DNA of 64,000 nucleotides from Macrostomum hystrix (GCA_950097015.1 CATNEN010000033.1:620001-684000), one strand, 5' to 3'; shown: positions 35,801 to 56,984, numbered from the stretch's first letter. Notes: generated from the sequence alone by a model not told the origin. A program made the numbers and translations.

Positions 35801-35886
35801 GAAACGAAGTCTGAATGATTTGTAATAAAGTGCCTTACAACATTCTTCTTCCGAATTGAAGCTTTGCAGACTGGGCACGTATCCAT
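32836..35886 (-). CDS. Zinc-finger plus tyrosine-recombinase-like protein (944 aa; exons 35886-35277, 35172-34349, 34236-32836)
   Basis: Introns 35173..35276 (GTAAGT..CAG, phase 1) and 34237..34348 (GTGAGC..CAG, phase 0) join three ORFs in frame; WKPSTV, ANRLRP, HKK, LLFP, DGRR, DTS...NAY motifs in YR order. Confidence 0.7.
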
Positions 35887-36490
35887 TTCGCTGGTTATTG
35901 TTTGATGCTGTTCCAAAGTGCTTATGACAGAAGAACGTTTACACAGATTTGTAAGCGAGCGCGCTCGGCTTCTGACTTAAGCTGCTATCGTGACCCGTAC
36001 GACAGTTTAATCACATAAACTATCATTCAAGGTTTGTCTATGGCGAAAAAGCATAATATTGAACTCATAATATATTTAACGTTGCTATATTGTCTACTCA
36101 TAGTAGAGTAGGTAGTTTCGAACAGCAGATGAACATAAACACGAATAATTAATTGATTTCTGATTTATGTCAACAATTTTAATCTGTATGTTGAGAAAGC
36201 ACTTAAATTATTGTTGATTATTCCAGAGGTATTTTCGCAAAAGTACATATGTATTCTCAAACGAAGGTCCATGTAGTCTTTTTGCGAAAATACTTTAGTG
36301 TCAATCAATATGACTACTGTTTCTGATGGTATTTTCGAAAAAAAACATGTGTCCTAAACGAAAGTAAAGGCATTATCAAAAGAAGGTAACAACCGTATTT
36401 GAGCAAAAGTACGTTCATAATAATAATAAATATTTATTTTCATAAGTAGTAAATTATTAGCTGATTTTATTTATTTATAAAAATGTGTAT

Positions 36491-36562
36491 TAGTGACTGG
36501 GATTCGAACCCGAGCCACTGGTATCGTAAAAGAATGCTTGTGACCTGCACGCCAGATCACTA
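36491..36562 (-). ncRNA. tRNA-like putative Pol III gene, copy A (72 nt)
   Basis: TATAAATA at -33..-26, TGGCGTGCAGG A-box-like motif, GGTTCGAATCC B box, 7-bp terminal stem TAGTGAT/GTCACTA, T5 downstream; no canonical anticodon arm. Confidence 0.55.
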
Positions 36563-36761
36563 GCAATTGAATAGTGTGTTATCTGGCTATTTATATTGAT
36601 TTTCTTTCGGATGTTGGATAATGTAACGGAATGATAAGATTTATTGAGAGAATATAGATAATACTGCTGATATTGCTATCGCGAAAATTATTCAAATGTA
36701 GTACCGTTGTTCATACAGGGCTAGGTATTTTCGCGAAAGTACATTTTCGCGTTATACTTTT

Positions 36762-36959
36762 GCGGGCCAAGTCATTCGGGCCGAAAGCTACTGCCGCCAG
36801 CCCGCCCAGGACGTCCTTCTGCTCACCCTGCAGGGCCCGTTCAGGCGCGGCCAGGCTCGGACCCGCCGCTACGACTGCGTGCTGAGCGACGCCAGGGCGC
36901 CCGACACTGCCACCGGCGCGGACCATGTTCGCGCGCTGGCTCTGCGGCGCATCATTTGA
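36762..36959 (+). pseudogene. Start-less coding remnant (65 aa) of an unknown gene
   Basis: GC-rich island with strong GC3 bias reading AGQVIRAESYCRQPAQDVLLLTLQGPF...LRRII*. Confidence 0.45.
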
Positions 36960-37359
36960 CGCCGCCCCCTTACGTTTGGGGCTTGCTAAAATTGTTGTTG
37001 TTGTTTTGCGAAAGAACATATTAAGGTAAATATGTTCTTGCGTCTATGTAAACTCGTGCATTCGCGAAAGCACAATAAAATAGTTCAGGATCAGGACAAA
37101 GAGTTATATTAGTAATATTAGTACTTTCGCAAACAGGACTACATGCTCCGCAGTGCCCGAGTGCGAAAAGACATAAGCTTAGCTGTTATAATTATAGAAA
37201 TACACTACGGAGATTAAAAAAAAGGTCATTTGGCATATCCGTCCGTATTTTCGCGAAATGACCACATGAGCTGTTCTATTTTTAGAAATACACTACGGAG
37301 ATCAAAAAAAGGTCATTCGACATTATTTGCGAAATCAATCACGAAGTTGAGGCAGATTG

Positions 37360-37641
37360 ATTGAAGATATTGTCCGCCCATAGACTTCTATTGAAAACTG
37401 ACTGAAGATATTGTCCGCCCATTGATTTCTATTGAAGTGAAGATAATGTCCGCCTACTGAAGGAAGATATTGTCCCATGTAGTTAATATGCTAGTGCCAT
37501 AGACGGTTGGGTCTGTAGTGCGGCCTTGAGTAGCGGATTTCCGACTTTCAGCACTTGTACATAGGGGAATCCACAGTCTAAGCTGGGGTCCACCGGACAA
37601 AATCTTCAGTTTGTTGGGGTCCGCAGGACATTATCTTCAAT
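37360..37641. mobile_element. MITE-like insert with 16-bp TIR ATTGAAGATATTGTCC
   Basis: TIR pair with 1 mismatch; internal subrepeats of the TIR; no TSD seen. Confidence 0.55.
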
Positions 37642-37644
37642 GCA

Positions 37645-37912
37645 TATTTTGTTGCAATGCGGACACGCTAGCACACGTCCACCGGCAGCGACATCTACAC
37701 CAGCCCGCTGTAGTTGCAGCATCTTCCAGACGGCACTTCCACGCCCCTTAACCGACGCGAATAATGATGGCTGTTGACCAACAGGTAGGACTGTCCAGTC
37801 AAACTCAAAAACATAAACAGCTTTATGTGGCTCTATAAAATGTCTTCACATCATATTAGCGCGGATTTGCTGGCCGCAGAAATGGCAGAAGCGGAGTCCG
37901 TTGTTGTCTTTG
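37645..37912 (-). pseudogene. 5' remnant of Z1 (ATG lost)
   Basis: Closest to the copy at 25..292; ATG>ATC and an indel. Confidence 0.8.
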
Positions 37913-38623
37913 ATTGCAGCTTTATAAATATAGTCGTTCGCTGGCTAGCTTGCTGAATAATCGACAGACTGAGTTGTGGCTGAATTTTAATTATCGATTT
38001 GCGTGCGCGCGCGCGCATATATTTACCAAGCACTGTCCATATTCTGTACAGAGAAGCAGTCGGACACATAGACATAGACAGACATCGTCAACTGGGTCTA
38101 AGCTATTTCCTTATATAGTATTTTCGCAAAAATACTGATATGTTATTAAACGAAGGTAAGGGCGGTATTTTTGCAAAATTTCTTGAAATTGGAAAATAAT
38201 GGCATTTTTTCGAAAATACTAACGATACGATGGACGAACAATTTTTTTCGCAAAAATGCTGATATGCATTTTTGCGAAGAGGGCAGCAAAGAGGGCAACA
38301 TGCAGTACTGAAAAGAATTGATGATTAATATTTTCACAATAAAGACCTGTTCTAAAACCAATATGAAATGCTGTATTTGTGCGAAAGTACTTTAAGTATT
38401 CATGATGACTATATCTAATGGTAATCAATAACCAAATATGACTTGACTTCATTATATTTTATTATTATTCACGCCGCAAATACAATTTTAAACAGGTTCA
38501 CTCATGTATATTTGCTTGAGCGAATTAATTTGGTTAATTAAATAGCTGGCATTAATTTAACGGCGAACAGGAAACTACAATTAGCTGTATTAAGTCTAGC
38601 TAAAACTAGTGCTGCTGCTGCTG

Positions 38624-39043
38624 CTACTGCTCCATTTGATATTGGCGACTCCGGAGCAACTCTCGCAGTCTAGCCCTTTGCTGCACGCCGCACCAGTAGT
38701 CCAGGCTGTGCAGAATGTGCTGCAGCTCCGAGCAGGAGTCCTCCAGCAGGCCTAGCAGCTTGGCCAAGTCGAATGCCTCGTTCTCTGTTAGGCAGGTCAC
38801 CTCCAGGATGGTCTCGTAGCCCGCAGCTGTCTGGTGTTGTAGCAGCCAATCCAGGAGGCTCTTCAGCAGGGTGTGCAGTTGGGTGGCGTTCAGCTAAGCA
38901 GTCGGGCAGTGGCGCTGCAGGCAGTTTAGCTGCTCCAATCGTCCTCGGTGCGCCAGGAACGGGGCCAGACAGGCGATGTCGCATCTGGCCAGGAGTGCCA
39001 CGGTGGCAGGCGAGCCGAACAGCACCACAGGATGCGCATTCAT
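38624..39043 (-). pseudogene. S1b copy with internal TAG
   Basis: 420 nt, colinear with 49964..50383; TAG at 38894-38896. Confidence 0.85.
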
Positions 39044-40357
39044 CGTGGTTCTACGCAACCAATAATGTCGTGAGTGCAACAGTAGTGCGTCTAACACTAG
39101 CAGAAGTAAAAAATTTTTCGAGAAAAAAACATATGTTCTTAAACGAAGGAAACGGCAGTATTTTTGCAAAAGTTCTTGAAGTAGCGTGCATGGCTACATC
39201 TTATGGTGTTTTCGCAAATGCAGATACGTATTCTCAGACAAAGTAACTTGTACTTTTTTACCATAGACACATTTAGTATTTCTGCAAATTGCCAAGATTC
39301 ATGCATGTATTCTTTTCGCGAAAAGAAAATATGTTCTAAATTAAATACTTATAAATGAAAAAAAGTGTCAGTTTTTGCGAAAATACTAACGATAATATGA
39401 AGACTATATTTTTCGCGAAAACGCTCATATGTTCTCAAAATGAAGGTAACGGCAGTCTTTTTGCACCATGCAGTACTCAAAGAAATTGATTATTATTAGT
39501 TCCACATTATCTTTGCGAAAATTTAAGTATTCTAAAACGAATACGAAATGCTTTATAGGTGCGAAAGTACTTTGAGTATTCATGATGACTATTTGTAATG
39601 GAAATCAAATATCAAATATGACTTACTTGAACTATTCACATATTTATTTTCTTATTATTTAATGTTTTCCTGTTCTTTATTAGGTGTTCATTATTTCAGA
39701 GGTATTTTTGCGAAAGTACATACACATTCTCAAACGAAGGTTAAGGTAGTCTTTTTGCGAAAATATTTTATTAGTGTTAATATGATTACTGCTTCTGATG
39801 GTATTTTCGCGAAAAGACATGTGTCCCATATGTGTATTTTCGCGAAAACACAGATGTATTTGAAACGATGGTCATACACTGCCGTACTTATGCAAAATTA
39901 CCTGTAAGACAAGAAACTTAGATCAAGCATAATCAAGCAACCTTAAAAGAGTATATTCACAAAACTGCTGATTAATATTGTGTTGCTTTATTATTCACGT
40001 CAGACGCTAGAAATTGCAACAGGTTCACTGCCATGCATATTTGCTTTGCATGATTATCTGGCGCATACCTGCGGCTTTTAAGAAAACGAGAATAGTTTAA
40101 TAGTAATACCAGATGTTAATCAAATTATTTTATAATCTGTTAATTAATTTATTTACAAACGAAATAATCACAGTGTTGACAATCATTAGCATCTTAACAA
40201 TATATAAGAGAGCAACAAACAGAACATATGAGATTCTCGGTTGTCAAGGGACGGGTATTAGTGGGGGTATCACAATTGACACAATTGATAATAGTTTGGC
40301 AAATCAGACAATCAGCACATATTAAGTCAGGTGACACGACTGGGACAATATGAGCAT

Positions 40358-41218
40358 TCAGATGTCCAGTCTAGTTCTCGAACTGATCAGGCGCCCAGAT
40401 CGCGTCCTGTATGCCGTTCGACGAACCATGAGTAGCTCAGAATCCGAGCTGGTCTCATTGTCATTGCTGACGTGCTGTTGTTCACCATCATCACCTTCTT
40501 CGTCGATATCGTCGTGAACGTTGCTTTGTCTTCCTGATGCTCCATGCATCGGCGGTTGACTAAGACTGCGTCGTCTAGACGATGTAGACGAAATAGGCGA
40601 TGGTGTTGCTGAATCGATGGCCGGCTTTGTCGACTCGGTGTTGTCCGTTGTTGAACATCTAGGACTAACCGTAGCGGGTCGCATTGTCGACATTCGAGGT
40701 CGCTTCTTGTCAGTGGCCTTGCAAATGGACGACCGTCGAGTGCGTCGCTTGCGTATGCGTTGACTATGTGGCATCACAATGTCATCAGCAGGTAGAGGAG
40801 ATGCAGCCGATGAATTGGTTGTGTCCAGATCAACGCTACAGACAGAGCGACGACGCTTCGTGTCGTTTTCGGCTGTTGGATGTCGTTGATGTCGACGATC
40901 AAGTGGCCGATTGTGACAGAATGTCTCGAAGCATCCTCTGACGTCGTCGGCGACCATCAGATTGGCCTGCTGTTTGGCCAGGCGTCCATACGCATTGACG
41001 ACACAGTTGCGCGATGTGTCGTACAGTGGCACCAGCTGGTCTAGCTTGTCGGGATGCGCGTGCACATATGCCGACAGTACATTTCGACGCCCATCGCCCA
41101 TGCGATAGGGCCGATCGATGACCAACTCGGCGCCCTGCTTGACAAGCGTGCTGAAACTTGTCGAGTCCCGCTGCTTGCCACGATGCGTAGGAAACAGCAG
41201 ACATGGTGATGCAGGCAT
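40358..41218 (-). CDS. Chimeric ORF: AR promoter and first codons fused in frame to the C-terminal part of the recombinase gene
   Basis: MPASP then CLLFPTHRGK...RTRLDI; upstream DNA matches that of 25638. Confidence 0.65.
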   Translation of the reverse strand: MPASPCLLFPTHRGKQRDSTSFSTLVKQGAELVIDRPYRMGDGRRNVLSAYVHAHPDKLDQLVPLYDTSRNCVVNAYGRLAKQQANLMVADDVRGCFETFCHNRPLDRRHQRHPTAENDTKRRRSVCSVDLDTTNSSAASPLPADDIVMPHSQRIRKRRTRRSSICKATDKKRPRMSTMRPATVSPRCSTTDNTESTKPAIDSATPSPISSTSSRRRSLSQPPMHGASGRQSNVHDDIDEEGDDGEQQHVSNDNETSSDSELLMVRRTAYRTRSGRLISSRTRLDI

Positions 41219-41454
41219 GGCGAGACAATGGGGGTAGTATTTAAAATGCTTAACTTGTTTAATTTACTTAATTAATTGTCCAAAGTTTTAACTGCATTGA
41301 TTGCATATTCTTAATAACATAAGATTATCAGCAAGCTGGTTACCATAGACTAGCAGTCGGGTTTTTTAGTTATTTTCTTTACTCAGTTAAGTTGCGTAAC
41401 TTATTTACACATTTTAGATTCTTAATTATTGTTTCCAATAAAAAAAACTACAAC

Positions 41455-41892
41455 ATGTCATCCCTGGGTGGGCGGCACAATGGCGGAGATCGAGACATCG
41501 ACAACTCTGGCAACGACAAACCGATCTCGTGCCCTACCGTCAGTAGCAGCACGGATGTCGTGATTGGCACTGAGCGACGTCGACGAAGGCACAGCTCGGA
41601 TAGTAGTTCAGACTCGGATTTTGCTATTCTGCCTTCACGTCAACGTGTTCAGTACGTATGGCATCGTCCAGGTGTCGTGCGCATTTACAATCAGAGATTT
41701 TCTATTGTGAACGCCAATCCGACACGTGATTTAGCCGGCCAATTGCAACTGCCGCATCATGCGCAAGTGACCGATATACAGTCACCAATTGTAAGCAGTA
41801 GCAGCAGCATCAACAATGGCGGCACTGGCACTGAAAGAGAGCGCGGAAATGCCAATCGTGCTGCTAATAACCCAGATTTGAATGACATGTAG
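41455..41892 (+). CDS. S3 protein copy
   Basis: Near-identical to 25873..26331. Confidence 0.65.
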   Translation: MSSLGGRHNGGDRDIDNSGNDKPISCPTVSSSTDVVIGTERRRRRHSSDSSSDSDFAILPSRQRVQYVWHRPGVVRIYNQRFSIVNANPTRDLAGQLQLPHHAQVTDIQSPIVSSSSSINNGGTGTERERGNANRAANNPDLNDM

Positions 41893-42420
41893 CAATTCTT
41901 TTGTTAAGCACTGTTGCCATTGGTTATAATGAAATTAATTAACTGATTAATATAATTAAAAGTTGCAGGTATTTGAATAACATATCTGAGTGTTCAAAGT
42001 CGACAGTTCATGATGCCTGCAAATGTTTTAAACTACTTTTATATACACTAGCTCTCGTTCACCTTCACGTGGTATATTCAAAGCATAAGAGTTTGCCGTC
42101 ACTATTGACAATATATTGTCGCGTTTACCATTAATCATAATCAGACGACTGATGAGATCAGTCAGTAATAAAATATTAATACGCGAACACAGATGTGTGC
42201 AGCTAGTCAATCGTTTATTATTAATACGGTTATTATTAATACGGCTTTTATTAAATTTCACCAATACATATAGAGTACAAATATATATAGAATTTAATTG
42301 ATTGAACAAATAATCGTGCTATTCTACAATTAGTCTGATTTGCAAAGTCGCGAGAGCAAAAATAAACGTGTAAACTATAATACATAAAATTCTGCATATA
42401 AATTCTGTATTTTACAGCAT

Positions 42421-42800
42421 TCATTGTTCGATGTACCAGTAGCGAACTCCATGTATGATGAGCTGGAGTTCAGCTTGGGCGTCCTCAAAAAGCTCTATCA
42501 CTTCGATGATGTCTTGTGCTTCATCCTCTCTTATACCAGTTACGAACAAGACAGCCTTATAGTCTTCTGCTGACCGGTGCTTTTGCAGCCATTCTTAGTG
42601 CGCCGTAATAATAAGCGTAACTCATTAGCGCTATACTCTGCATTTGGAACACCGCGCTGCAAACTAGGTAGCTGCTCGAAGCACCCTCGATGCGCTATGA
42701 ACCGGCCAATGCAATCTATGCGACAGCTGAGAAAGAGTTGAAATACGCGCTGCTGAAGATACATTTGTACTAACTGCATCTGATCGGCAATTAACGACAT
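42421..42800 (-). pseudogene. S1 copy with a 1-nt deletion
   Basis: Frameshift near 42597. Confidence 0.8.
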
Positions 42801-43045
42801 GTTCAGTCAGTTAGTAAATCAAGTAAAGCAAAAAATAGTTTTGTTAAAAAAAATTCTAAACTTTAATCAAAGCCCCCATAGAGTATATTTTATCGAACAC
42901 AGGTGAGTCAGTCCACAGACAAATCAAATGAATACAGGCCAGTCAGGGTATTAAGAACTAGAAATCTTTCACGGCGAAGAAATCAGCCCACAACCAATGT
43001 CAGTCACAACAGCAACAGCAGCAACAGTAACAACATTCTCGTGTC

Positions 43046-43413
43046 ATGTCAGGATTTCATCTCTTTCCTGCTAATTTTCACGCTTTCGTCCTGGCCTCCG
43101 CTGCCAAGGTGTTGGAAGAGGCGCTCCACGCAGCGAGTGAGGCAGCGACAGCAGTGGCGGCAGCGGAGGCCCGGACGCCAGGACGACGCGGGGCGGAGGC
43201 GTCAATGGCCGCAGCTATGCGGCGGGTCAGGGCGGCCATGCTACGCATGGCCAGGGCCCACCGCATAGCTGCGGGCCTAGACCCTTATGTGAGTAGTAAC
43301 TATTCACTTTTATTTTCATTTGAATATCTATTAACACATCTGACAACATCTGAGATAACAAACTAATTGAAACCTAAAACCCATCATTCATCCCGCAGCC
43401 GGGTGTCCTATGA
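43046..43413 (+). CDS. S2 protein (exons 43046..43288 and 43399..43413)
   Basis: Conserved intron and PGVL*. Confidence 0.75.
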
Positions 43414-43543
43414 CCGAGGGGTGTCCGAAGCGGTGCATTAATTGAAGACAAAGTGTCCTATGACCGAGGGGTGTCCGAAGCGGTGCATTAATTGAAGACA
43501 AATATGAACTGATTGAACTAATTGATTGATTAAAATTGATTGA

Positions 43544-43577
<34 letters not shown>

Positions 43578-44878
43578 AAGTAATTAATAATTGATTAAAA
43601 TGCTTAATACGTCTTATTGTTTTTTTTCTTAGCTTGGATTTAGTTTATTATATGAAATTGTAGGCGTGCAATAATATAACTATTATCGTACATTATACAG
43701 ACATATAAGTTAATTAGATAAGTTAGATAAGTTTGAGAAAGTAAAGTACAAACGACAAAAAATTATTATAATAATAAATAAATGAATTATTGTACACTTT
43801 CGTATCGCTAGATTTAAGATATTCCAAGATGCACTATTAAAACGTGCAGACTATAGGTATGTAGTGCATTAAATTGTGCGTATTTTACCAAAGACATATC
43901 TGCTTGGTACAGTTCGATTTTTCGCAATTTTTTATGTTCTTGGCATCCAAATTTTTCTTTCGAAAATACAGTCAGATGTTTTTGGCCATAGACACAAAAA
44001 AACGACTGCATATAATTCATATTGTATGCAGTATTTTTGCAAAAGTTCTTTAAATAGCGTGGCGATATCTTATGGTATTTTCGCGAATGCAGATACGTAT
44101 TCTCAGACTAAGTAGCTGTGGAGTAATTTTGAGCATTACTAAAATTATTATTACTTATTTGAAAGGAGTTCAAGTTGGCTAATGCACACATTGCCCTCAG
44201 GCCGCACGTTAGCCAGCTGAAATCGAAGCAGCTTCCTTTGAAGACCGCCGCGATCTGCACCCGGTCATCCGTTTTAAAATATAAATAAATAATAAATATA
44301 AATAATTTCGTGTTTGTTATTTGTTTAATCGTTAACAGTACACAACTTCTTATCTTGTTTATTCTATCATTAAAATAATATGAACTGAACTGACTGGCAG
44401 TTATGCGGTGCACATTGGCGTTGAGACTTATTACAAGACCGACGTAATCGTAATCGATCAGTCTGAGATATTATGTTTGTATTTATATTGCGCAAAACCT
44501 GAGAATAATGAAGTGGACTTAAAACTAAAATTGATGTAAAAAGAATAGACAGTAGCGGAATCGAATCGCTTGGAATCAAATCGCGTAAAAATATATATTT
44601 TTTAGTTTATTCTTATATCAACGTATATTAAATCAATCGATTAAATCAAGTTCAGTCTGAATTTATTATAAGTGAGTCAGTTGATTATTCAGCCAGCCAG
44701 CCAGCCAGCCAGCCAATCAGTCAGTAGACAGACAAAGCAGCCCAATCTGAGTTGCACGCCGAGCCAATTGAATCAAACGAAATCAATTGCCGCACAGACA
44801 TTGTCGCGTCTTGATCAATCGGCCGTGTCTTGACACTGTCGTAGTCAATATATTGTGTGTGCATAAAAAAACTACAAC

Positions 44879-45334
44879 ATGTCATCCCTGGGTGGGCGGC
44901 ACAATGGCGGAGATCGAGATCGAGATATCGACAGAGAGGATCACAACTCTGGCAACGACAAACCGATCTCGTGCCCTACCGTCAGTAGCAGCACGGATGT
45001 CGTGATTGGCACTGAGCGACGTCGACGAAGGCACAGCTCGGATAGTAGTTCAGACTCCGATTTTGCTATTCTGCCTTCACGTCAACGTGTTCAGTACGTA
45101 TTGCATCGTCCAGGTGTCGTGCGCATTTACAATCAGAGATTTTCTATTGTGAACGCCAATCCGACACGTGATTTAGCCGGCCAATTGCAACTGCCGCAGC
45201 ATGCGCAAGTGACCGATATACAGTCACCAATTGTAAGCAGTAGCAGCAGCATCAACAATGGCGGCACTGGCACTGAAAGAGAGCGCGGCAATGCCAATCG
45301 TGCTGCTAATAACCCAGATTTGAATGACATGTAG
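44879..45334 (+). CDS. S3 protein copy
   Basis: Near-identical to other copies; directly follows a Z1 3' remnant (44787-44860). Confidence 0.65.
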   Translation: MSSLGGRHNGGDRDRDIDREDHNSGNDKPISCPTVSSSTDVVIGTERRRRRHSSDSSSDSDFAILPSRQRVQYVLHRPGVVRIYNQRFSIVNANPTRDLAGQLQLPQHAQVTDIQSPIVSSSSSINNGGTGTERERGNANRAANNPDLNDM

Positions 45335-45847
45335 CAATTCTTTTGTTAAGCACTGTTGCCATTAGTTATAATGAAATTAATTAACTGAATAATATAATTA
45401 AAAGTAGGTATTTGATTAACACATCTAAGTATTCAAAGTTGACAGTTCATGCTGCCTGCAAATGTTTTAAACTACTTTTACATACACTAGCTCTCGTTCA
45501 CCTACGTGGTAATATTCAAAGCATAAGACAGTTTGCCGTCTCTATTGACAATATATTGTCGCGTTCACCATTAATCATAATCAGATGACTGATGAGATCA
45601 GTCAGTAATAAAATATTAATACGCGAACACAGATGTGTGCAGCTAGTCAATCGGTTATTATTAATACTGTTATTATTAAATTTCACCAATAAATATATAT
45701 AAAGTATAAATATATGTAGAATTTCATTGATTGAGCAAATAATCGTGCTATTCTACAATTAGTCTGATTTGCAAAGTCGTGAGAGCAAAAATAAACGTGT
45801 AAACTATAATACATAAAATTCTGTATAAATTCTGTATTTTACAGCAT

Positions 45848-46228
45848 TCATTGTTCGATGTACCAGTAGCGAACTCCATGTATGATGAGCTGGAGTTCAG
45901 CTTGGGCGTCCTCAAAAAGCTCTAGCACTTCGATGATGTCTTGTGCTTCATCCTCTCTTATACCAGTCACGAACAAGACAGCCATATAGTCTTCTGCTGA
46001 CCGGTGCTGTTGCAGCCATTCTTGAGTGCGCCGTAATAATAAGCATAACTCATTAGCGCTATACTCAGCATTTGGAACACCGCGCTGCAAACTAGGTAGC
46101 TGCTCGAAGCACCCTCGATGCGCTATGAACCGGCCAATGCAATCTATGCGACAGCTGAGAAAGAGTTGAAATATGTGCGGGTGAAGATACATTTGCACTA
46201 ACTGCATCTGATGGGCAATGAACGACAT
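45848..46228 (-). CDS. S1 protein copy
   Basis: Intact 126 aa. Confidence 0.75.
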   Translation of the reverse strand: MSFIAHQMQLVQMYLHPHIFQLFLSCRIDCIGRFIAHRGCFEQLPSLQRGVPNAEYSANELCLLLRRTQEWLQQHRSAEDYMAVLFVTGIREDEAQDIIEVLELFEDAQAELQLIIHGVRYWYIEQ

Positions 46229-46459
46229 GTTCAGTCAGTTAGTAAATCAAGTAAAGCAAAAAATAGTTTTGTATAAAAAATTCTAAACTTTAATCAAAGC
46301 CCCCATAGAGTATATTTTATCGAACACAGGTGAGTCAGTCCACAGACAAATCAAATGAATACAGGCCAGTCTGGGTATTAAGAACTAGAAATCTTTCTCG
46401 GCCAAGAAATCAGCCCACAACCAAAATTCACAGCAAGCAGTAAAGCAGTCAGCCCTCCG

Positions 46460-46828
46460 ATGTCAACTTTCCCAGTCTTCCCGGCGCCGTTCCGGCAACA
46501 TATACTGGCTTCCGCCGCCGCCACACTCCAAGCTGCGCTGGTCGAGGCGATGGAGGCGGCCGTCGAGGTGGCGGCGGCGGAGGCTTGGACGCCGGAACGG
46601 CGCCGGGCGGATGCCGAGATGGCTGCCGCTATGCGGCGGGTCCGGGCGGCCATGGTCCGCATGGCCCGGGCCCGCCGCATAGCGGCAGGCCTCGATCCTT
46701 ATGTGAGTAGTAGATTTCGATTCCTTTCATTTGAATATTTATGAACACATCTGCATGGTAACATCTGAGCTAACAAACTAAATGAAACCTAAAAACCATC
46801 TTTCATCCCACAGCCGGGTGTCCTATGA
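46460..46828 (+). CDS. S2 protein (exons 46460..46702 and 46814..46828)
   Basis: Conserved intron and PGVL*. Confidence 0.75.
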
Positions 46829-47841
46829 TGAACACAGACCGAGGACCAGAGGACAGTCCAAGAAGTCCAAGGATTGACTGATATGAACCGTATCCGTATG
46901 ATATGATGATATCATAGTCGAGCATGTGACTGATATGAACCGCGATATAAACAAAACATTTACAGATTGACTTGTTAAAACTGTTCTGTTATTTTATATC
47001 TATCTATATAAAATTTGTGCGACAATTGACAATATCATTATTGACAATATCATTGAAAATAACAATAATAAACAATATATAATACCTGAGGTCATATCAA
47101 TCTTAGCTTGGATTTCGTTTATTATATGAAATTGTAGGCGTGCAATAATATAAATATTATCGTACATTATACAGCCATATAAGTAAGTTAGATAAGTTTG
47201 AGAAAATAAAGTACAAACGACGAATAAATTATTATACACTTTCGTAACGCTAGACATAAGATATTCCAAGATGCACTATTAAAACGTGCAGACTATAGGT
47301 ATGTAGTGCATTAAAATCTGCGTATTTTACCAAAGACATATCTGCTTGGTACAGCTCGATTTTTTCGCGATTTTTTTTCTTCGTATCCACATTTTTTCTT
47401 TCGAAAATACAGTCAGACGTTTTTGGCCATAGACAAAAAAACGGCTGCATATAATTCATATTGTGTGCAGTATTTTTGCAAAAGTTCTTTAAGTAGCGTG
47501 GCTATATCTATGGTATTTTCGCGAATATAGCCAGATATTTAATCTATAATTAGTATTTGCGCACTGCCAAATGTTTTTCGCGAAAGTACATACGTATTAA
47601 GTCAAAACGAAAACAAGTTGACTACTTGAGATCTGTGCATAATGTGGCAGTGGTAAAAAGGTAAGAAGGCTCTTATGGAAGACAGCATCGTCACACCGGA
47701 CTGCTACGGTATTGTAGTGTATATAGTGACTCGGTGTGACGGTTCCGTGGTTCACATACTGCGACATGTCACATACTGGTTGAACAGTAGAATGTATTTT
47801 CGCGTCCTTCAACGGAAGCTGCTATGATATCAGCTGGCTAT

Positions 47842-47939
47842 TGCTCACGCACTGCCATCAGGCCGCACGTTAGTCAGATTTCAGCTTTTTTCTGAATGCT
47901 TTCAGCTGGCTAACGTGCGGCCTGACGGCAGTGTGAGCA
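47842..47939. other. Branched hairpin / inverted repeat, copy 2
   Basis: ~35-bp imperfect stem, same inner arm as 28721..28800; a half copy near 44198. Confidence 0.85.
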
Positions 47940-48465
47940 GTCAGCATTGCTCTGCACCGGTCATCCGTTTTAAAATATAAATAAATAATAAATATAAATA
48001 ATTTAGTGTTTGTTATTTGTATAATCGTTAAAAGTACACAACTTCTTCTCTTGTTTATTCTATCATTAAAATAATATGAACTGAACTGACTGGCGGTTAT
48101 GCGGTGTACATTGGCGTTGAGACTTACAAGACCGACGTAATCGTAATCGAATGTTGAGATATTATGTTTGTATTTATATTGCGCAAAACCTGAGAATAAT
48201 GAAGTAGACTTAAAACTAAAATTGATGTAATAAGAATAGACAGTAGTGGAATCAAATCGCTTAGAATCAAATCGCGTAAAAGTTTATATTTTTTAGTTTA
48301 TTCTTATATCAACGTATATTAAGTCAATCGATTAAATCAAGTTCAGTCTGAATTTATTATAAGTAAGTCAGTCGATTATTCAGCCAGCCAGCCAGCCAGC
48401 CAGCCAGTAGACAGACAAAGCAGCCCAATCTGAGTTGCACGCCGAGCCAATTGAATTGAATGAAA

Positions 48466-49700
48466 TCAATTGCCGCACAGACATTGTCGCGTCTTGATCA
48501 ATCGGCCGTGTCTTGACACTGTCGTAGTCAATATATTGTGTGTGCATATACAATACGAGCGTCTAGATGCATGCAAAGCATCAGTCGCAGGTATAGTCGA
48601 TTGCGATGACTGCACATCACTTATTGACATTGCGACATCGTCGTCAAGGTCGGCGGTCAGAACCAATTCTGCTGCGGCATCGGCATCTCCTTGCGGCACT
48701 GTCACATCAGATAGCTGTTCATCAGAATCGTTGTTGACATCAGCAATGATGATCTCCATTGCGACATCAAACATGTCATCGATGTGACTTGCTTCGGAAT
48801 GGGCAGCGAAATCCGATCCAGCAGCAGCAGCAACACAATCCGTATTGGTAGACAGAAATTGCATAGCGGCAGGTTGCATCAAGTCGAGCAGAATCTGCGC
48901 CATTTCAATGTCATCACCGTGACCGGATGATGTACCAATACACACTGACTGCGTGCTGACATTGGCTTCGATTGAAACATCGGTCACACCGTTTTGTGCA
49001 CTGACACCAACTGTCGCTGTTGTTACTCTTGGCGCACAGACAGGAATAAAAACAGGTAGCGGCACCGGAACGAAATACGGCACCTCGACAGTTGGAATCG
49101 GCAACATAGGCATCGCTGGTGATCCGATTGGCTCAATTTGCAAAATTGGCATTGATGGCGATGGTACTGGCGAGTGATCCGATTGGATTGTTTCTGCTGC
49201 TGCTTCAATCGCATTGTGATTAAGCGGAGTATATGTACAAATTGGATGCCGTACTGATCCAATTGACACGCTGTCCGCTTGGCTCACATGTTCAGCAGGC
49301 TCGTCAGTACTTGTTGCATAGATGATGCCTGATTCAGCTGCGCTATCTTCTATGATGATAGTTTCTGCTGGCTGCTCTGCTGCTGACTGCTCTGCTGATG
49401 GCTGCTCTGCTGCTGGCTGCTCTGCTGCTGGCTGCTCTGCTACTGGCTGCTCTGCTGCTGGCTGCTCTGCTACTGGCTGCTCTGCTGATGGCAGTCGACG
49501 GGCAATGTAGCGCTCGTGCATATAGTCGACAATCTCGCCGACCACAGCTGGTAGTGGATTCAGTTGTTCAAGCTGGACCACTTCGCCCATTGCCGCTGCT
49601 CCCGCCACTGCCACTGGCTGAGCTGATTGGCCACCGACGCGACGCTGCGGATTCCGCTTACATCTATATTGATGATGCAACATGTTGGACGTTATTTTGT
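48466..49700 (-). pseudogene. Z1 copy lacking its N-terminal zinc finger
   Basis: Similarity to 29599..31077 stops near 49700. Confidence 0.8.
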
Positions 49701-49963
49701 TTCAAATGGCGCAGTTGTGACAGCAGCGGAATGCAGTTCGAACATTCTATGAAATGAGTTTCATGCAGGGTATTATCTTACGTTACATGATGACTGCAGC
49801 CCCATGCCACTGCTGCACCTGAGTTAGGGACCCATTTCGCACTGTGATGATCGATCGAAATTTTTCCAATATACTGCGGGATATATAGTGACTATAGCGG
49901 TATTAGCTAGTGTTAGACGCGTTGCTGCTGCACGTACGACATTGTTGGGTGCGTAGAACCACG

Positions 49964-50383
49964 ATGAATGCTCATCCTGTGGCGCTGTTCGGCTCGCCGG
50001 CCATCGTGGCACTCCTGGCCAGATGCGACATCGCCTGCCTGGCCCCGTTCCTGGCGCACCGAGGACGACTGGAGCAGCTGACCTGCCTGCAGCGCCACTG
50101 CCCGAATGCTGAGCTGAATGCCACCCAGCTACACACCTTGCTGAAGAGCCTCCTGGACTGGCTGCTACAACACCAGACAGCTGCGGGCTACGAGACCATC
50201 CTGGAGGTGACCTGCCTAACAGAGAACGAGGCTTTCGACTTGGCCGAGCTGCTAGGCCTGCTGGAGGACACCTGTTCGGAGCTGCAGCACATTCTACACG
50301 GGCTGGACTACTGGCGCGGCGTGCAGCAAAGGGCAAGACTGCGAGTGTTGCTCCAGAGTCGCGAATATCGAATGGAGCAGTAG
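49964..50383 (+). CDS. S1b protein (139 aa), intact paralog of S1
   Basis: FLAHRGRLEQL...LQHILHGLDYW aligns with S1 FIAHRGCFEQL...LQLIIHGVRYW. Confidence 0.75.
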   Translation: MNAHPVALFGSPAIVALLARCDIACLAPFLAHRGRLEQLTCLQRHCPNAELNATQLHTLLKSLLDWLLQHQTAAGYETILEVTCLTENEAFDLAELLGLLEDTCSELQHILHGLDYWRGVQQRARLRVLLQSREYRMEQ

Positions 50384-51030
50384 CAGCAGCAAAAAGACTT
50401 AGCTAGACAGTTTAAATAACTTATCCCTGTTTGTGAACCCAAACCAACTCTGCACCAATAAAAGAATGGTTTAGTATCAACTAAGTTGGCAGATCCAACT
50501 CGATACCGGTAAGTTTATTTTGGATAACCTAAAAATAGACAGCAGAGTACAGTTCGTGGTGCGCGCACAATCCCTAAGAAATATATATACAAGACGATTC
50601 GATTAGAGCTGCTGCTTATCTACCTAAGAATAGCAGGCAAGTCCTTATATATTTTTAAGTAATGTGCGCGCACTATGAACTGTACTTCTCGCTAAAAGTA
50701 CACACTATCAACTTAACCGGGATCAGAATTAAACTAATTAAGCACCTATTAATAGAATCTTAATCTATCAGTTTAAAGCTATAAGATCAATATGCGCGCA
50801 CATGTGCGCATAAGATAAGTAGTAGTAACAGTGGTACTATCTGCTGCTTATCCTAAATAGCCTGCTCCTTCTCCTTGGGATGTACTTGGGACTCTATTAA
50901 TAGGGAATCCCACCATGTTGCACCCAGTTGAAGAAGTTGAGAACCTGGGACTGCGTTGGCTTTCTGCAGCCTGCTCATTTTCATACATCCAAATTTGAAC
51001 GCGCCTATAATTAACCCGCGGAAGCACAGA

Positions 51031-53928
51031 ATGTCGTTCAATTTTTCTACCGGCTGCGACAGCGACGATGAACGAATTGCGGCCGCGCTGGACGAGTTTG
51101 AGAGAGCTGCCCAAGATAGCAACTCCGCCGGGCCGGTAGCGTCATCAACTCACCAGCCACCATCACAGCGAAAAAGAAAGAGCGCTCCCTCTCAACGTCG
51201 CATTGTCAATGCAGCGGCAGCAGCAGCAGCTGCAGAATCTACGCCAGGCCCAAAGCGGTGCTGCCGTCCAGTGCAGACAGCAGCGGTGGCTAACATCAGC
51301 AGTGACGCCGACGACTTCAGCCTGCTGCCCCTGAGCGGTGTCATGCGCCTGAACACTGAAGAGCAGCAGCCTGCCAATGACCAGATGTCCACAGCATCAG
51401 GCAGTGTGGACCTGCTGAACGCGTCGATTGTGTCCATCCGCGTCGTATCCCAGCCAGCGGCAGCAGGCAATCAGCAGCCGCCACCACCTGCTAGTACGTC
51501 GGCAAATAACACGACCGTCTACGCACCAATCTCCCACGCGATGGCAGCCTCAGCCTCGACTGCGCCAAAAGGGAGCCTGCTGGCTTGGCTCGGTGATCAG
51601 CACCGGAGTGCCAAGAAGGCCACCAGCAGATGGTCGTCGCCGGCAGTGATCAGGCACGTCGGGCGACAGGCTGCTGGCAAAAGTGACGACAGCGACGGTG
51701 CGGCGTCTGACGCGCCCGACAGGTCCAGTGCAGCCCTACAGCCTCGCAGCCCCGTCGTCATCGAGATTGAGGATGTCGACGACGAGCGCCACGATATAGG
51801 CAGAACGACAGCGGCAACTCGCAGTAGCGGCCCAAAGGCGGAGCCATCGGAGCCTAACGAGCAGGAGGCGGCGATGGATAGCGACGACCGCGATGCTCTG
51901 CAGGCACTGCTGGACTACGAGGCGTCCACCGTTGCGCTGTCAGTCGCTGTAGATCCCCCACCGTCGGGCGCTGATGCGGAAATGGAGGAGGTCGCCAGCA
52001 CGGTGCCGAAACCGCCTCAAGTCGCGGCCGACCAACAACAGCAGCCAGGGAGGCGGAGGTTCCGTTTTCAGCGGCTCGAAACGACTGCTCCTGCTGGCTG
52101 TTGCTGCTGCTGCCGACTGCTCCATTGTGGGCGCCATGGTGCCAGACTCGCAGTCCGATGGCCGACGACTTGCAGTCGCCAAGACCACACCGTCTCAGCG
52201 TCCGGAAGATGAGACGACGGCCTACGTGGTGTCGCCTGGCACAGCGGCATTCGCAGCAGCGGTGGTGGCCGCTATGAATGAGGCCAGCCAGTCCGTCCCT
52301 GTCGGCCAGGAGTGGTGGCGCATAATGACACCGCAGCCGCTGCAGCAACAAGAGCAGGTGCAGCTCGAGCGTCCTCCCTCGCTGATGGCATTCAGCTACA
52401 GTCCGCCGGCGTCTGCGGCACAGTATATGCAGTATATGCAGCAACAGCAGGGGGACAGCGAGGCAAGCAGGAGCGCGGTCGGCGGCGCCAGAGGACAACG
52501 AGGCGGCCGAGGCGTGCGACGGCTGGGCCAAAACCCGCTGCTTAATGCGGCAGCAGCACAGCAGCAGTTCACGGTGACGCGCTCCGTCAGCCGACCGCTC
52601 GCAATGACCGGTGCTGCTCCTGCGGAGCGACTGCCAGAGGACAGCGGGATTCTGACCGGCGCCGCTATTTGCACGTCTTCCACATCGACAACGTGCGCTT
52701 CGTCGGTGAGTCACTTGCTTTGTTCTTAAGCTTTGAATCATATAACCAGCTGGCATCCACTGTTTCCATGCTGCCTACATAAACAGGTCGTGCCAAGGTA
52801 TATCTGGGCGAGGCTCTGGAGGCACACTGTGTCGAGCTCGTCCTGGCGTCCAGCCCGGGCCTCTGCGTCGGCATGGATGAATTCTGCGACCGGCGGCTAG
52901 TCGCTGACCCGCTCTCCGTCGACGAGATGGAGCAACAGCAGCAGCAGCAGCAGCATAGCGAGTATCGGCCACACCGCACTCTGTCCGGCTTCGTGCGCCT
53001 GGAGACCAACGCGGCCAGCTGGCATCTTTACGAGCTGCTGTTCAGCCTGCTGCCTAGCCGAGACGAGGGACGCTGCTTTGTGGTGCCCGACCGGACCACC
53101 CTGACGCTGTGCGGCGTCCGCTCGCCAGACAGTGTGCTGCGGAGCCTGACGCAGCACGACGGCTACCCGCTGCTGATCGGGATCGGCGCCACGCAGTGCA
53201 GCATGCTGGTGCAAGCGACTCGGTGGGCGCTGTCCTACCCGCTGACTGCCAACCTGCCCGACCAGACTGACGGCTTCTTGTTGGCCCACCAGCAGATGCG
53301 CGCCACGTTGCTGGGCGTTTTCAGAGATGTGCAGCGCCAGCGCCGGATTCGCAGGGAGCAGCTCGCCGGCTGTTCCGCATGCTCCACCGAGGCTGCCGAC
53401 AACAGGAACCTGTGCCCGCTCCGAGAGGCCGTCTGCATAGCCCTTCGCCACCAGTCGGGCGTTGTCTATCTGTATGGGCCGTCGGGAGTCGGCAAGACCA
53501 CCGCCGTCGAGCGCCACTTGGGCCAGGAGCGCGTATTCTGCCCGGTCATTAAGCGCTTCGGCGGTAATGACTTCATGTTCGACGGCCTGGACACCGCGCG
53601 CCACTCAGTCATCTTTCTGGACGAGGTGCGGCCGCACATGTTCGAGGGCGGCGACCTGGAGACCACGCTGTTGCGCCTGCTGAACGGCAACAGCTTCCTG
53701 GTCAACGCTAAGCACCAGGCGCATGTCTACCTGGACTGGGGCCAACGGCTGGTAATCATGGCCGGCCACGCCTCACCTGACGACTTCCCGGCTGACGTGC
53801 AGCGGCGCCTGCGCAACGAGGGCAACACATGCGTCGAGGTCGACCACGACATCGAGGCCTGCCAGGGGGGGTGCCGCCAGCAGCCGATGTTCGGAGCCGC
53901 CGCCGCCGCCAACGCCCAAGTTGAATAA
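51031..53928 (+). CDS. Rep-like/SF3 helicase paralog 2 (two apparent frameshifts; intron 52706..52786)
   Basis: GPSGVGKT, VIFLDE, RLLNGNSFLVNAK, VIMAGH, VQRRL; colinear with paralog 1; frameshifts near 52050-52150 and 52657 are lesions or assembly errors. Confidence 0.8.
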
Positions 53929-54499
53929 TTGATGAGGCCGCCTAATGTCTGTCTGTCTATTGCAAAATTATTTCACCCCTGCACCCGTATTTTGTTCCTA
54001 AAATGTTGAAAGGGGGGGTCTGGTCAAGGCAAAGGGGTGTCTGGTCCAGCCAAGCCCCAGCCAAGGCCCCCCAGCAAGACCAAAACGGACCTCTGTTGTA
54101 CGTGTATTCTAAATCGGTGCGAGTTTTCCCCAGAGACGACGACCCTAATTGGGATAGCCTTTATAAAATGTTCTATATTTAGAAATACACTACGGAGATC
54201 AAAAAAAAGGTCATTCGGCTTTTACAGCCATAGACGTGTGCAAGAAATACACTAAGGAGATAAAAAATGTCTTTTCAGCTACGCATGCGCCTGCTGTAAG
54301 TAGTAGCTATAGCAGTGCAGAAACTGGCTAGTCAGTGAGTTGCAGAAATTTGGATTTCGGCTTTGGTTTTTGGCTTTGGTGCTGTCGCATATTCTAAGTC
54401 TATCCTGAAGTCGCAGCAGCAAGTTGGCGGATAGTGAAAGCGAGGGATAGTGAAGAGAGGATCAAATCGAAGGAAGGGGAGGAAAGCAAAAGTAGGTTG

Positions 54500-55185
54500 A
54501 CTGCACAGATTGTAGATTTGTACTGATGTGTTACTTTCGCGAAAAAATATTTGGAGGATAGTATACAGGAGGAAAGTGAAAGCGAGGGAGAGTGAAGAGA
54601 GGATCAGGATCATCAGATCCTGAATCAGAATCCAGAATCCTGAATCCAGATTCCAGAATCATCAGATTAAAGGAAGGGGATCAGGAAAGCGAAGGTATAG
54701 GGGAGGAAGCTAAGACAGAGTGAAGGGAGGATATGCAGAGAGTCAGACACCACCACCTACCCAACCACCTGCACTCTGCATCCACCCACCCAAATTCGTA
54801 CGACTGATTCATTGTAATTATTAATTCATTGTACTGATCGATGTCTTACTTTCGAGAAAACATATTTGGAGGATAGTACAGGAGGAAAGTGAAAGCGAGG
54901 GAGAGTGAAGAGAGGATCATCAGATTAAAGGAAGGGGTTCAGGAAAGCGAAGGTATAGGGGAGGAAGCTAGGACAGAGTGAAGGGAGGATATGAGAGTGA
55001 GACACCATGCACCACCTACCCAACCTGCACCTGCACTCTGCATCCACCCACCCAACACCACACACCACACCACACCACACCACACACCACACCACACCAC
55101 ACACCACCCACCCAACACCACACACCACACCACACCACACCACACACCACACCACACCACACACCACACCACACACCACACCCTG
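54500..55185. repeat. Purine-rich ~300-bp tandem duplication followed by (CACCACAC)n-type microsatellite
   Basis: 54500-54790 resembles 54830-55050; CA-rich repeat 55040-55185. Confidence 0.8.
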
Positions 55186-55204
55186 CAGCAGAACTCCAAT
55201 TATA

Positions 55205-55795
55205 AGAGTTTATGGACTTAGAGAATTTACAATCTGTAAATTCTCGACCGTCCCAAGGCTTAAATAGTGTGGTGAGATTGGGGCGGGATAGAGGGAGCCA
55301 GTTAGTATATACTCTAAAGAAAGGTGCGCGTTGTATATTTTCGCTGGAGGCAATATGACGGAGATTATATCTAGATCGGGCTTGATGACGACTAGTTACT
55401 ATAATAGATGACCGAAAATGCATGGTGTTTCTATTTTTAGCCTAAGGCGCACCTTTCTTAAGAGTATATACTGGCTTGCGTGCCCCATAGACTTCAATAG
55501 GCTGCCATTTAAATACACACGAGCCAGCTTGTATATATATACTCTTAAGAAAGGTGCGCCTAAAGCTAAAAATAGAATCGAATCGCCCGGGGTTTAGCCA
55601 GCCCGGCTATATACTAGCCCCCATATGCCGACGACGACGACGAAGTCAAGTTGCGAAAAAACAGCTCGCGCACCTTTCTTTAGAGTATATATATATAATA
55701 CCTGCATTTACTCCACCAGCCACACCAACTAAGCTCTGGGGACGGTCGAAAATTTTATCACTGACATGATAAAATTCTCTAAGTCCGTAAACTCT
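55205..55795. mobile_element. Foldback/MITE-like element
   Basis: IR pairs AGAGTTTATGGACTTAGAGAATTT / AAATTCTCTAAGTCCGTAAACTCT and TCGACCGTCCCA / TGGGACGGTCGA; inner AAAGGTGCGC / GCGCACCTTT repeats. Confidence 0.6.
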
Positions 55796-56164
55796 AGTTT
55801 ATACGTATAGACCGATTGGGCAAGCAGCATCGGCTGCCTGAATCACATATCCGTACATATATGTGATGGATGTCGATTCGAAAACTGACTTGGCTGTGAA
55901 TAGACTCAAATGCTGGTATTTTCGCGAAAAGTGTATTTATTTTCGCAAAAATACTGATATGTTTCCAAAACAAAGGTAAGGGTAGTATTTTTGCAAAACG
56001 TTCCTGAACTACTCTCTATATTCGCTGAATAAAAATTATCAGTCTGTTAGAAAAAAAATTGTATTAGTGGTCAAGATTTCACCATTTGCAGACAAACGTC
56101 ATTAAAACTCGAACATGCGAAAGAAAATAAATATAAATAGCCAGATAACACACTATTTGATTGT

Positions 56165-56236
56165 TAGTGATCTGGCGTGCAGGTCTAAGGCATTTCTCTC
56201 TAATACCAGTGGCTCGGGTTCGAATCCCGGTCAGCC
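56165..56236 (+). ncRNA. tRNA-like putative Pol III gene, copy B
   Basis: TATAAATA at 56132, GGTCTAAGGC (tRNA-Leu-like D loop), GGGTTCGAATCCC, T6 at 56243. Confidence 0.5.
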
Positions 56237-56433
56237 TTACGCTTTTTTGTTATTAAAAAAACAGCTAACATTTTACTATCAATGAAAATAAATCTTTACT
56301 AGAAATCTATTTTTTTATATTCGAATCCCCACTATTTGTGGATCCCCATTATTATTAACGTACTTTTGCTCGAATACGCCAGTTAAGAAAAGAAAAGCAA
56401 TATAAATAGCCAGACAACACACACTTTAATTGT

Positions 56434-56504
56434 TAGTGAACTGGCATGCAGGTCTAATGCATTGTCGCTAGTACAAGTGGCTCGGGTTCGAATCCCATTC
56501 ACCC
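56434..56504 (+). ncRNA. tRNA-like putative Pol III gene, copy C
   Basis: TATAAATA at 56401, same A/B boxes, T7 at 56511. Confidence 0.5.
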
Positions 56505-56984
56505 AACGCATTTTTTTATTTAAAAAAATGGGCAATATTATACTAGAAATGAAAAAATATTTTTACTAGGAATCTGTTTTTTTATATTGGAATCCACACT
56601 TTTTGTGTGGATCCCCATTATTATTAATGTTTACTTACTACTGCAATATTACTTATAGTAGGGCCGATTGCACCTGAAGTAGTAAAGTATACTGCGAAAG
56701 TAATTGAATTAACATGGCTAGTCTATATACTTGTAATGGCTTTTTCGCGAAATAGCCATAGAAATTTTATCTATTAGTATTTGCGAATTGGGGATTGCAA
56801 TACACACGAGTGAATTTTCGCGAAAAAAAAGTTTTGTCTGTAGTCAAACCTAGAACTACAGTTGAGTACAGTCGCAAAAGTGACCTATGTAAGACTGAGC
56901 GCGCTTAACATCTACTTTGTGACCGACTGACTGACCGACCGAGTAATTACGAGTTAATTCCTACGCCTCGACTTGAATTTTGAA

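Follow-up and report, generated by a model that had tools for sequence, protein, structure and literature searches.

What does a virus-like element gain from three genes that resemble transfer RNA (tRNA) genes and probably decode nothing? The question is raised by a locus in the flatworm Macrostomum hystrix (GCA_950097015.1, CATNEN010000033.1:620001-684000), of which the whole stretch analysed, 64,000 nucleotides (nt) of one strand, is here called the window. From position 16225 to its end the window is pieced together from partial copies of a single element, and the three tRNA-like units, u1, u2 and u3, lie within that element. Judged from their sequence, there is a good probability that they are element-borne, non-decoding transcription units of RNA polymerase III (Pol III). 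That they are kept mainly for the occupancy of their promoters, with a role in cis before element genes, is a broader reading, to which we lean tentatively and which falls a little short of an even chance.

Unit u1 (36479..36595, minus strand) has a TATA box at 36595-36588, an A box at 36554-36544, ACG at the anticodon position (36527-36525), a B box at 36510-36500 and a run of five T residues (T5) at 36483-36479; its predicted RNA is about 85 nt long. Unit u2 (56132..56248, plus strand) is built in the same way (TATA 56132-56139, A box 56173-56183, anticodon-position CTA 56200-56202, B box 56217-56227, T6 56243-56248), with a predicted RNA of about 84 nt, as is u3 (56401..56517, plus strand; TATA 56401-56408, A box 56442-56452, anticodon-position CTA 56468-56470, B box 56485-56495, T7 56511-56517), with one of about 83 nt. 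The tRNA-like bodies occupy 36491-36562 (minus), 56165-56236 (plus) and 56434-56504 (plus). In every unit the TATA octamer TATAAATA, starting at 36595, 56132 and 56401, lies 41 nt upstream of the A box and 33 nt before the start of the body. The A box, TGGCRTGCAGG, deviates from the usual consensus at position A14. It is followed, 43 to 44 nt from its own start, by a perfect B box, GGTTCGAATCC, and the T runs (starting at 36483, 56243 and 56511) begin 15 to 16 nt beyond that B box. All three units thus have the parts of a type-2 Pol III gene: A box, B box, their spacing, a T-run terminator and an AT-rich box at about -31/-24. TFIIIC, bound to the two internal boxes A and B, positions TFIIIB over the -31/-24 region, and Pol III starts about 30 nt past the TATA box and stops within the T run (PMC7279448); the transcription starts were predicted with that spacing, about 30 nt downstream of each TATA box. 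A first-pass annotation of this DNA had proposed three tRNA-like Pol III units with an upstream TATA box, an invariant core and T5 to T7 just downstream; the sequence check found the units at the positions it gave, and every one of these signals in each of them.

Chance is an unlikely source of this arrangement. The invariant core, the 19-mer TGGCTCGGGTTCGAATCCC, occurs three times in the window with no mismatch, and is unlikely to have done so by chance because shuffled sequence gave a mean of 0.01 occurrences even when up to three mismatches were allowed. The composite of TATA box, A box, B box and T run was found three times in the 64-kb window and never in 100 block-shuffled windows. There are three strict B boxes in the 64 kb, all within u1 to u3. 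A search of the 64 kb with a profile of the three units and with filters off gave no fourth copy, the next match scoring 9.9 bits compared with 87 to 95 bits for the units.

The units are duplicates of one another. Units u2 and u3 form a tandem duplication (56120..56627, plus strand; period 269 bp, 1.9 copies, 83% matches), in which an AT-rich trailer and a short hairpin, CCAC/GTGG, come after each unit. This hairpin (56318-56350 and 56590-56620) stands about 80 nt past the u2 and u3 terminators, is preceded by a B-box-like remnant and is missing from the u1 cassette. The u1 cassette (36394..36658, minus strand) is inverted and diverged, with pieces that match 56015-56049, 56109-56301 and 56348-56378 by BLASTN; the first of these matches is an extra upstream piece of homology (36624-36658). 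Between the u1 and u2 cassettes 160 of 193 aligned bases are identical. Shared sequence begins some 50 nt or more upstream of the predicted start and extends 60 to 125 nt past the terminator, and homology that reaches beyond the transcribed part at either end points to duplication at the DNA level, not to retroposition as a short interspersed element (SINE). No SINE body or tail was found at the units, and the search for target-site duplications turned up one shared 7-mer, AT-rich and flanking u1, with nothing at u2 or u3, in agreement with the earlier view that these are not SINE heads. Overall the cassettes are 80 to 84% identical, differing at 16 to 20% of positions, while two non-coding stretches of duplicated element copies are 98 to 100% identical (217/221 and 121/121). 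Since the divergence of the cassettes is so much greater than that of the element copies, the units are long-separated paralogues inside the element and did not arise in its recent rearrangements.

Against this divergence, the geometry of boxes and terminator is constant in all three cassettes. Of the 117 columns from the TATA box through the T run, 88 are the same in all units; downstream the figure is 35 of 58 (one-sided p=0.033). The longest stretch without a change spans 21 nt and covers the B box (permutation p=0.023). B boxes and TATA octamers are identical throughout, and the A boxes have a single change between them; the arms have many. The least conserved block is the anticodon region, with two of ten columns invariant. 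These figures give modest support to promoter signals having been retained while the arms drifted. The 140 nt downstream of the terminators are AT-rich, with further T runs and hairpins that are short or AT-rich. No pre-microRNA hairpin was found before the terminator, and the T runs come 7 to 8 nt behind the tRNA-like body, so the suggestion that the units are leaders of microRNAs (miRNAs) has to be dropped.

The units were annotated as element-borne, and their flanks bear this out. Single units of the element's repeats, at 36230-36289 and 55938-56011, adjoin the tRNA-like cassettes. A motif of about 50 bp (54169..54219, plus strand; also 37184-37234 and 37272-37319, 88 to 96% identical) is common to both far-upstream flanks of the units. 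The palindrome TTYGCRAA occurs 1.8 to 8.5 times per kb in the four unit flanks and is absent from 15.5 kb of non-element DNA (705-16224). From flank palindromes, adjacent repeat units and the common motif together, the units are placed inside element DNA; each unit site is present once in the window.

Likeness to a tRNA is partial in each unit. ARAGORN at its default setting called none of the three as a tRNA gene, and Rfam scans to E≤10 returned no tRNA, vault RNA or Y RNA row (one overlapping match of the same clan is unlisted, and a flatworm vault or Y RNA may be too divergent for the models). Nothing reached the Rfam gathering level, the sole match being 13 to 15 nt of T arm to the tmRNA model. 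With relaxed settings ARAGORN calls u1 at 99%, u3 at 97% and u2 at 90% of its threshold, and at 90% the three units are its sole calls in the window. Of 300 shuffles per unit with the boxes held fixed, 6 (u1), 5 (u2) and 2 (u3) were called at 95% of threshold and 22, 27 and 23 at 90%; by these rates u1 and u3 retain more cloverleaf than the boxes account for, and u2 marginally more. The anticodon region had been described as variable and non-canonical. It is indeed variable, and it is not shapeless: relaxed calls place a 7-nt loop at the normal cloverleaf position, with ACG in u1 and CUA (amber) in u2 and u3. In u1 the acceptor has 7 bp and U33 is present, while the anticodon stem has two mismatches and the T stem is short (3 bp). 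Unit u2 has a 5-bp T stem and U33, with a broken acceptor and two mismatches in the anticodon stem. In u3 the D stem has 4 bp and the anticodon stem is paired, while position 33 is G, the T stem has 3 bp and the acceptor has two mismatches. Thus each arm of the cloverleaf is intact in at least one unit and broken in another. No unit combines a 7-bp acceptor with a 5-bp T stem in a single fold, and none combines a paired anticodon stem, a 7-nt loop and U33. The D-arm and T-arm sequences may resemble those of eukaryotic Leu and Ser tRNAs. ARAGORN labels the CTA units as pyrrolysine tRNAs, a label rejected because the GG and TTCG motifs are kept and the geometry typical of such tRNAs is absent. 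The units are probably worn tRNA-derived genes that do not decode, as had been proposed.

A 152-residue open reading frame (ORF) of the element ends in TAG-CAA-TT in all four copies (26329-26340, 41890, 45332 and 62770), a context that resembles known leaky stops. The same context is found at 27 of 1211 TAG triplets of the element region, and the extension past the TAG is four residues in three of the four copies. Translation through TAG into a polyprotein was considered and rejected, as no element ORFs are joined when TAG is ignored; frames of at least 300 residues number 11 with TAG read through, 9 normally and 15 per control codon.

The folds of the predicted RNAs do not agree with one another. 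Minimum-energy folds have z-scores of -4.0 (u1), -0.6 (u2) and -0.3 (u3); energy favours two separate hairpins in u1 and, weakly, in u2, and u3 folds otherwise. RNAalifold also picks the two-hairpin fold, in which none of 19 pairs is changed on both sides. The stems proposed in the first-pass annotation (a terminal stem, an RTGC/GCAT stem and a GGG/CCC T hairpin) can be formed in 97.2% of paired cells (35/36), compared with 83.3% for the two hairpins and 79.7% for the cloverleaf. That annotation had called the stems covarying. Both of its changes are present, one being two-sided (U.G to A-U in the terminal stem, in u3 only, the same pair that changes on both sides in the cloverleaf) and the other one-sided (G.U to A-U). 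As evidence this covariation is weak, because 167 of 500 shuffles reach its score, because the structure was chosen from the same three sequences on which it was scored, and because enforcing the terminal stem costs 10.0 (u1), 9.7 (u2) and 1.0 (u3) kcal/mol. No fold common to the three units is established, and the claim of a conserved, covarying RNA structure is not supported. A conserved, stable stem structure is a trait of the virus-associated (VA) RNAs of adenovirus, the Epstein-Barr virus-encoded RNAs (EBERs) and BocaSR; here three copies offer rival folds and one two-sided change.

Perfect boxes, constant spacing and terminators, taken together with inconsistent folds, suggest that the value of the units may lie in being bound and transcribed more than in the shape of their RNA. 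Their position suggests where such a benefit might fall. The ATG of a helicase gene lies 468 nt past the u3 terminator and that of a gene for a zinc finger and a putative tyrosine recombinase 593 nt past the u1 terminator, each on the same strand as its unit, which would fit a barrier or open-chromatin role. Occupied tRNA genes can act as chromatin barriers. By this account a host tRNA gene would have been captured by the element, duplicated within it and retained as a type-2 Pol III unit reinforced by a TATA box. Pol III would make uncharged RNAs of 83 to 85 nt from u1 to u3, and the occupied units would hold chromatin open before the helicase and putative recombinase genes, as a barrier or against silencing. 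The units are likely transcribed; that their RNA stays uncharged and that the benefit acts in cis are likewise steps that we infer. For vtRNA1, a viral tRNA-like RNA (vtRNA) of murine herpesvirus 68 (MHV-68), the authors allow for the Pol III promoter also acting in cis (PMC4337559).

Several observations weigh against retention for the promoter. The signal of selection is weak because it comes from three copies, two of which form a tandem pair, and the conservation tests were picked after the alignment had been viewed. Bases are also invariant outside the boxes (AGTGA, CAGGTC, GCATT and 10 nt before the B box); this, like the excess of cloverleaf in u1 and u3, would fit equally well with selection on the RNA or with recent descent from a tRNA. 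An internal T4 in u1 (36531-36528) could end Pol III transcription early. The second copy of the helicase gene, at 19179, has no unit upstream of it, the homology stopping at 19017.

How else might the units have come to be there and been kept? It is possible, though on balance unlikely, that the RNA itself matters, acting in trans as an uncharged tRNA mimic, as a decoy for host proteins that bind tRNA or sense stress, or as a helper of replication, in the manner of MHV-68 vtRNAs, VA RNAs, EBERs or the bocavirus RNA BocaSR. A TATA box and terminator that are both conserved imply a defined transcript, the proposed stems can be formed in nearly all cells and one pair has changed on both sides. 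There are also precedents: BocaSR is a type-2 Pol III RNA needed by a virus that lacks a polymerase and has a superfamily 3 (SF3) helicase (PMC11194592), and one vtRNA without miRNAs has a phenotype (PMC4337559). Against this, the covariation does not exceed that of shuffles, the terminal stem has to be forced and the fold chosen by RNAalifold has no two-sided change. Nor do the units pair with hairpins or repeats of the element; the longest match is 9 to 10 nt, below the shuffle mean of about 11, and guide pairing to element hairpins was rejected for that reason. The units may instead be decaying cargo, tRNA genes that once worked and are now pseudogenes in a rearranged, partly broken, integrated array, which we regard as unlikely without being far-fetched. 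Arms that are intact in one unit and broken in another, u1 and u3 so narrowly under the ARAGORN threshold, the rearranged array and the helicase copy that changes frame would all be expected, and tRNA genes are known from Polinton-like viruses (PLVs; PMC12220804) as well as seven tRNA-Ser genes from the bracovirus MdBV (PMC4169385). However, decay has spared the B boxes, the TATA octamers and all but one A-box position while the arms took many changes (p between 0.02 and 0.03), and because the cassettes diverged long before the element copies did, such decay would have to be old and still have left the boxes alone.

Decoding by at least one unit, u1 as a tRNA-Arg(ACG) or u3 or u2 as a weak amber suppressor, is improbable. 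The 7-nt loops are canonically placed, u1 has its full acceptor, u3 has its D stem and paired anticodon stem, and the leaky-like end of the 152-residue ORF is kept in four of four copies; but the default search and Rfam reject all three units, G33 and the acceptor mismatches count against u3 and the anticodon-stem mismatches against u1 and u2, read-through of TAG joins no ORFs and the CTA common to the tandem pair is a single event. A long shot of the same kind is that an undescribed flatworm element with a Rep-like helicase and a tyrosine recombinase uses its own tRNA-like RNAs, two of them with CUA, to loosen termination at UAG or to jam defences that sense tRNA in host cells; if true, an animal would harbour a mobile element with a tRNA for a stop codon. 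Prokaryotic integrases use the T loops of tRNA genes as attachment sites, and the invariant core could by analogy be a DNA site, the T loop and inverted arms serving the putative tyrosine recombinase for attachment or inversion. The 7-nt loop of u1 does lie within a 10-bp imperfect inverted repeat, and u1 is inverted relative to u2 and u3, with which it brackets the block from helicase to recombinase. Yet the homology carries on past the core in both directions and shows no trace of an exchange, a DNA site gives no reason to retain the TATA box, A box and T run, u2 and u3 each have disrupted outer pairs in the arms, and the assignment of the recombinase is itself weak, which makes this very improbable. 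Just as remote is an origin as heads of a dispersed tRNA-derived SINE, or as copies of a host small-RNA gene, for example one for the vault RNA of flatworms, inserted into the element. SINEs derived from tRNAs are known in flatworms, and no vault RNA turned up in schistosomes (PMC2770079); but the flanks are shared on both sides, the units have no body, tail or convincing target-site duplication, no copy lies within the 15.5 kb of non-element DNA, and Rfam returned no vault or Y RNA row. The recombination site and the SINE or host RNA are the least likely of these explanations.

The carrier of the units looks like a virus-like, integrated Rep-helicase element, apparently undescribed and with one annotated relative. 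In the window it is present as two to five partial, rearranged copies, mostly 85 to 99% identical (16225-64000 and 1-704), and a composite map gives a length of about 24 kb. Two of its genes are for SF3 helicases and others for zinc-finger proteins with acidic tails; it also has a putative spliced tyrosine recombinase, several small ORFs and arrays of a repeat of about 100 bp. The helicase gene downstream of u3 (56985..59700, plus strand) consists of two ORFs with a predicted intron between them and Walker A in the last exon; its matches to AAA and RNA_helicase are weak and below the Pfam cut-offs, and its second copy is at 19179-22877. A second helicase gene (51031..53928, plus strand), a paralogue of the first, is of SF3 type and resembles CRESS-Rep and parvovirus NS1; this copy of it changes frame in its CAG-rich stretch near 52040, as judged by eye. 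Foldseek gave CRESS Rep, parvovirus NS1/Rep and papillomavirus E1 as top matches (E 2e-8 to 1e-5), and the helicase part, modelled at a predicted local distance difference test score (pLDDT) of 65 to 89, has the features of an SF3 helicase domain. The N-terminal residues 1-179 were modelled at pLDDT <50, with no Pfam match for a HUH endonuclease. Among 7736 candidates the ORF at 52873-53928 has two relatives, a protein of Macrostomum lignano, PAA62424.1 (69% across 65% of the query), and, at 53%, a fragment from a metagenome; none of 7991 candidates was retained when the helicase was aligned against longer proteins.

The gene downstream of u1 (32836..35886, minus strand) consists of three ORFs with predicted introns and encodes a zinc finger and the putative tyrosine recombinase. 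Its assignment as a recombinase is weak: Atlas places it at rank 10 with a score of 0.91 and 111 of 256 features shared, and the pattern of residues is recombinase-like by eye. The region has no match in Pfam, PHROGs or PDB sequences, a protein search gave none among 460 candidates, and the single-sequence fold of the ORF has a pLDDT of 35. Scans of viral contigs for related loci confirmed none of four candidates for the recombinase ORF and none of five for a second window protein, P0002. Among the window ORFs listed or scanned no capsid ORF was recognised, and genes for PolB and a packaging ATPase were not seen in the element part of the window; the element is possibly incomplete there. In PLVs tyrosine recombinases are paired with PolA or archaeo-eukaryotic primase (AEP) replicases, which mostly bear SF3 helicases (bioRxiv 10.64898/2026.10.13.758929; PMC10120064).

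The element's repeat of about 100 bp forms an array at 23542..24311, with palindromes of the TTTTCGCGAAAA type, and further arrays at 16389-16603, 31274-31577 and 60085-60861. Palindromes of this type, which resemble E2F sites, also occur scattered outside the arrays; neither they nor the arrays are present in 705-16224. They are candidate origins or S-phase enhancers. Between 54426 and 55800 there are tandem purine-rich repeats with a (CACAC/CACCA)n tract (55055-55182) and nested inverted repeats (55205-55330 with 55667-55795, and 55429-55577), and a long hairpin lies at 50550-50682; together these may mark an element terminus or an origin. Other mobile DNA is also present in the window. Decayed fragments like those of Polintons or adintoviruses (4541-5728, 13581-14440 and 1777-2469) include pieces like a packaging ATPase and an exonuclease-like ORF, both recognised by eye, and a parvovirus-type phospholipase A2 domain (PF08398, E 1.6e-10). 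A Tc1/mariner-type transposon (2791-4440) has terminal inverted repeats of 157 bp (98% identical) and an open ORF of 378 residues for a DDE_3 transposase. There are in addition a Gypsy-like retrotransposon gag-pol in several frames (8505-11246), an endonuclease fragment of a retrotransposon without long terminal repeats (869-1450), and tandem arrays of 23 bp and 18 bp (12170-13365), the latter reading (NWGIIV)n and scoring as a hexapeptide repeat.

As a kind, tRNA-like Pol III genes borne by viruses or elements are already known. The vtRNAs or tRNA-miRNA-encoded RNAs (TMERs) of MHV-68 are alike in being several similar tRNA-like genes with Pol III promoters in a DNA virus, and are reported not to be aminoacylated (PMC4337559). 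They differ in having miRNA stem-loops that follow the tRNA-like part ahead of the terminator, and in their carrier, which is a herpesvirus and not an integrated flatworm SF3-helicase element known from sequence alone. BocaSR, VA RNA and the EBERs share the type-2 promoter of A and B boxes, an element near -30 and a T-run terminator (PMC11194592, PMC7279448), and VA RNAs and EBERs are also tandem paralogues. The bocavirus that makes BocaSR depends, moreover, on an SF3 helicase and on host polymerases (PMC11194592). BocaSR is longer, at 140 nt compared with the predicted 83 to 85 nt (PMC11194592), and the units have a residual cloverleaf in place of the long conserved stems of the three viral RNAs. 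They also have a canonical TATAAATA where the BocaSR, VA and EBER genes have TATA-like boxes in the cited paper, and were found to make no pairing with element hairpins. Integrating eukaryotic DNA elements that carry tRNA-derived genes include PLVs, many of which also carry tyrosine recombinases, MELD viruses and bracoviruses (PMC12220804, PMC8502044, PMC4169385). The tRNAs of cryptophyte PLVs pass the default ARAGORN search and are read as a supply for codons, in contrast to the units, which fail it and of which two have a stop anticodon. The rodent 4.5SI and 4.5SH genes stand alone and encode small RNAs of 94 to 98 nt; each has a -31/-24 box besides its A and B boxes, and 4.5SI is linked to the tRNA-type SINE B2 (PMC7279448). 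They are host genes, not carried by an element, and are likened here by architecture only. The Sm-alpha-type SINEs of a flatworm genome likewise have a degenerate tRNA head with A and B boxes (PMC2770079) and differ from the units in not sharing flanks on both sides and in having what the units lack, a body, a tail and a target-site duplication.

What sets these units apart is a carrier that has Rep-like helicases and in which no capsid was seen, together with their canonical TATA box and, in two of the three, an amber anticodon. Viral contigs gave no match to any of three sequence patterns of the units. Three matches to the patterns in metagenome contigs (L001-L003) were rejected, being antisense to a bacterial aminotransferase-like ORF and having no TATA box, T run or similarity to the window. 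The titles and abstracts searched describe no such units for Macrostomum or for a CRESS-like element, the supplementary tRNA tables of PLV papers lying outside that scope, and no paper was found that joins Macrostomum, tyrosine recombinase and virus. In PMC11071296 a term search gave no occurrence of flatworm, Macrostomum or tRNA.

Small-RNA genes transcribed by Pol III are well studied in a few vertebrate viruses, and BocaSR was described as the first Pol III RNA in a small DNA virus without a polymerase of its own (PMC11194592). A set of them in an invertebrate element that has introns and an SF3 helicase would bring the trait to a further type of carrier and a further group of hosts. The three units also pose a clean test of the question raised for MHV-68, namely whether vtRNA genes act through their RNA or through an occupied promoter.

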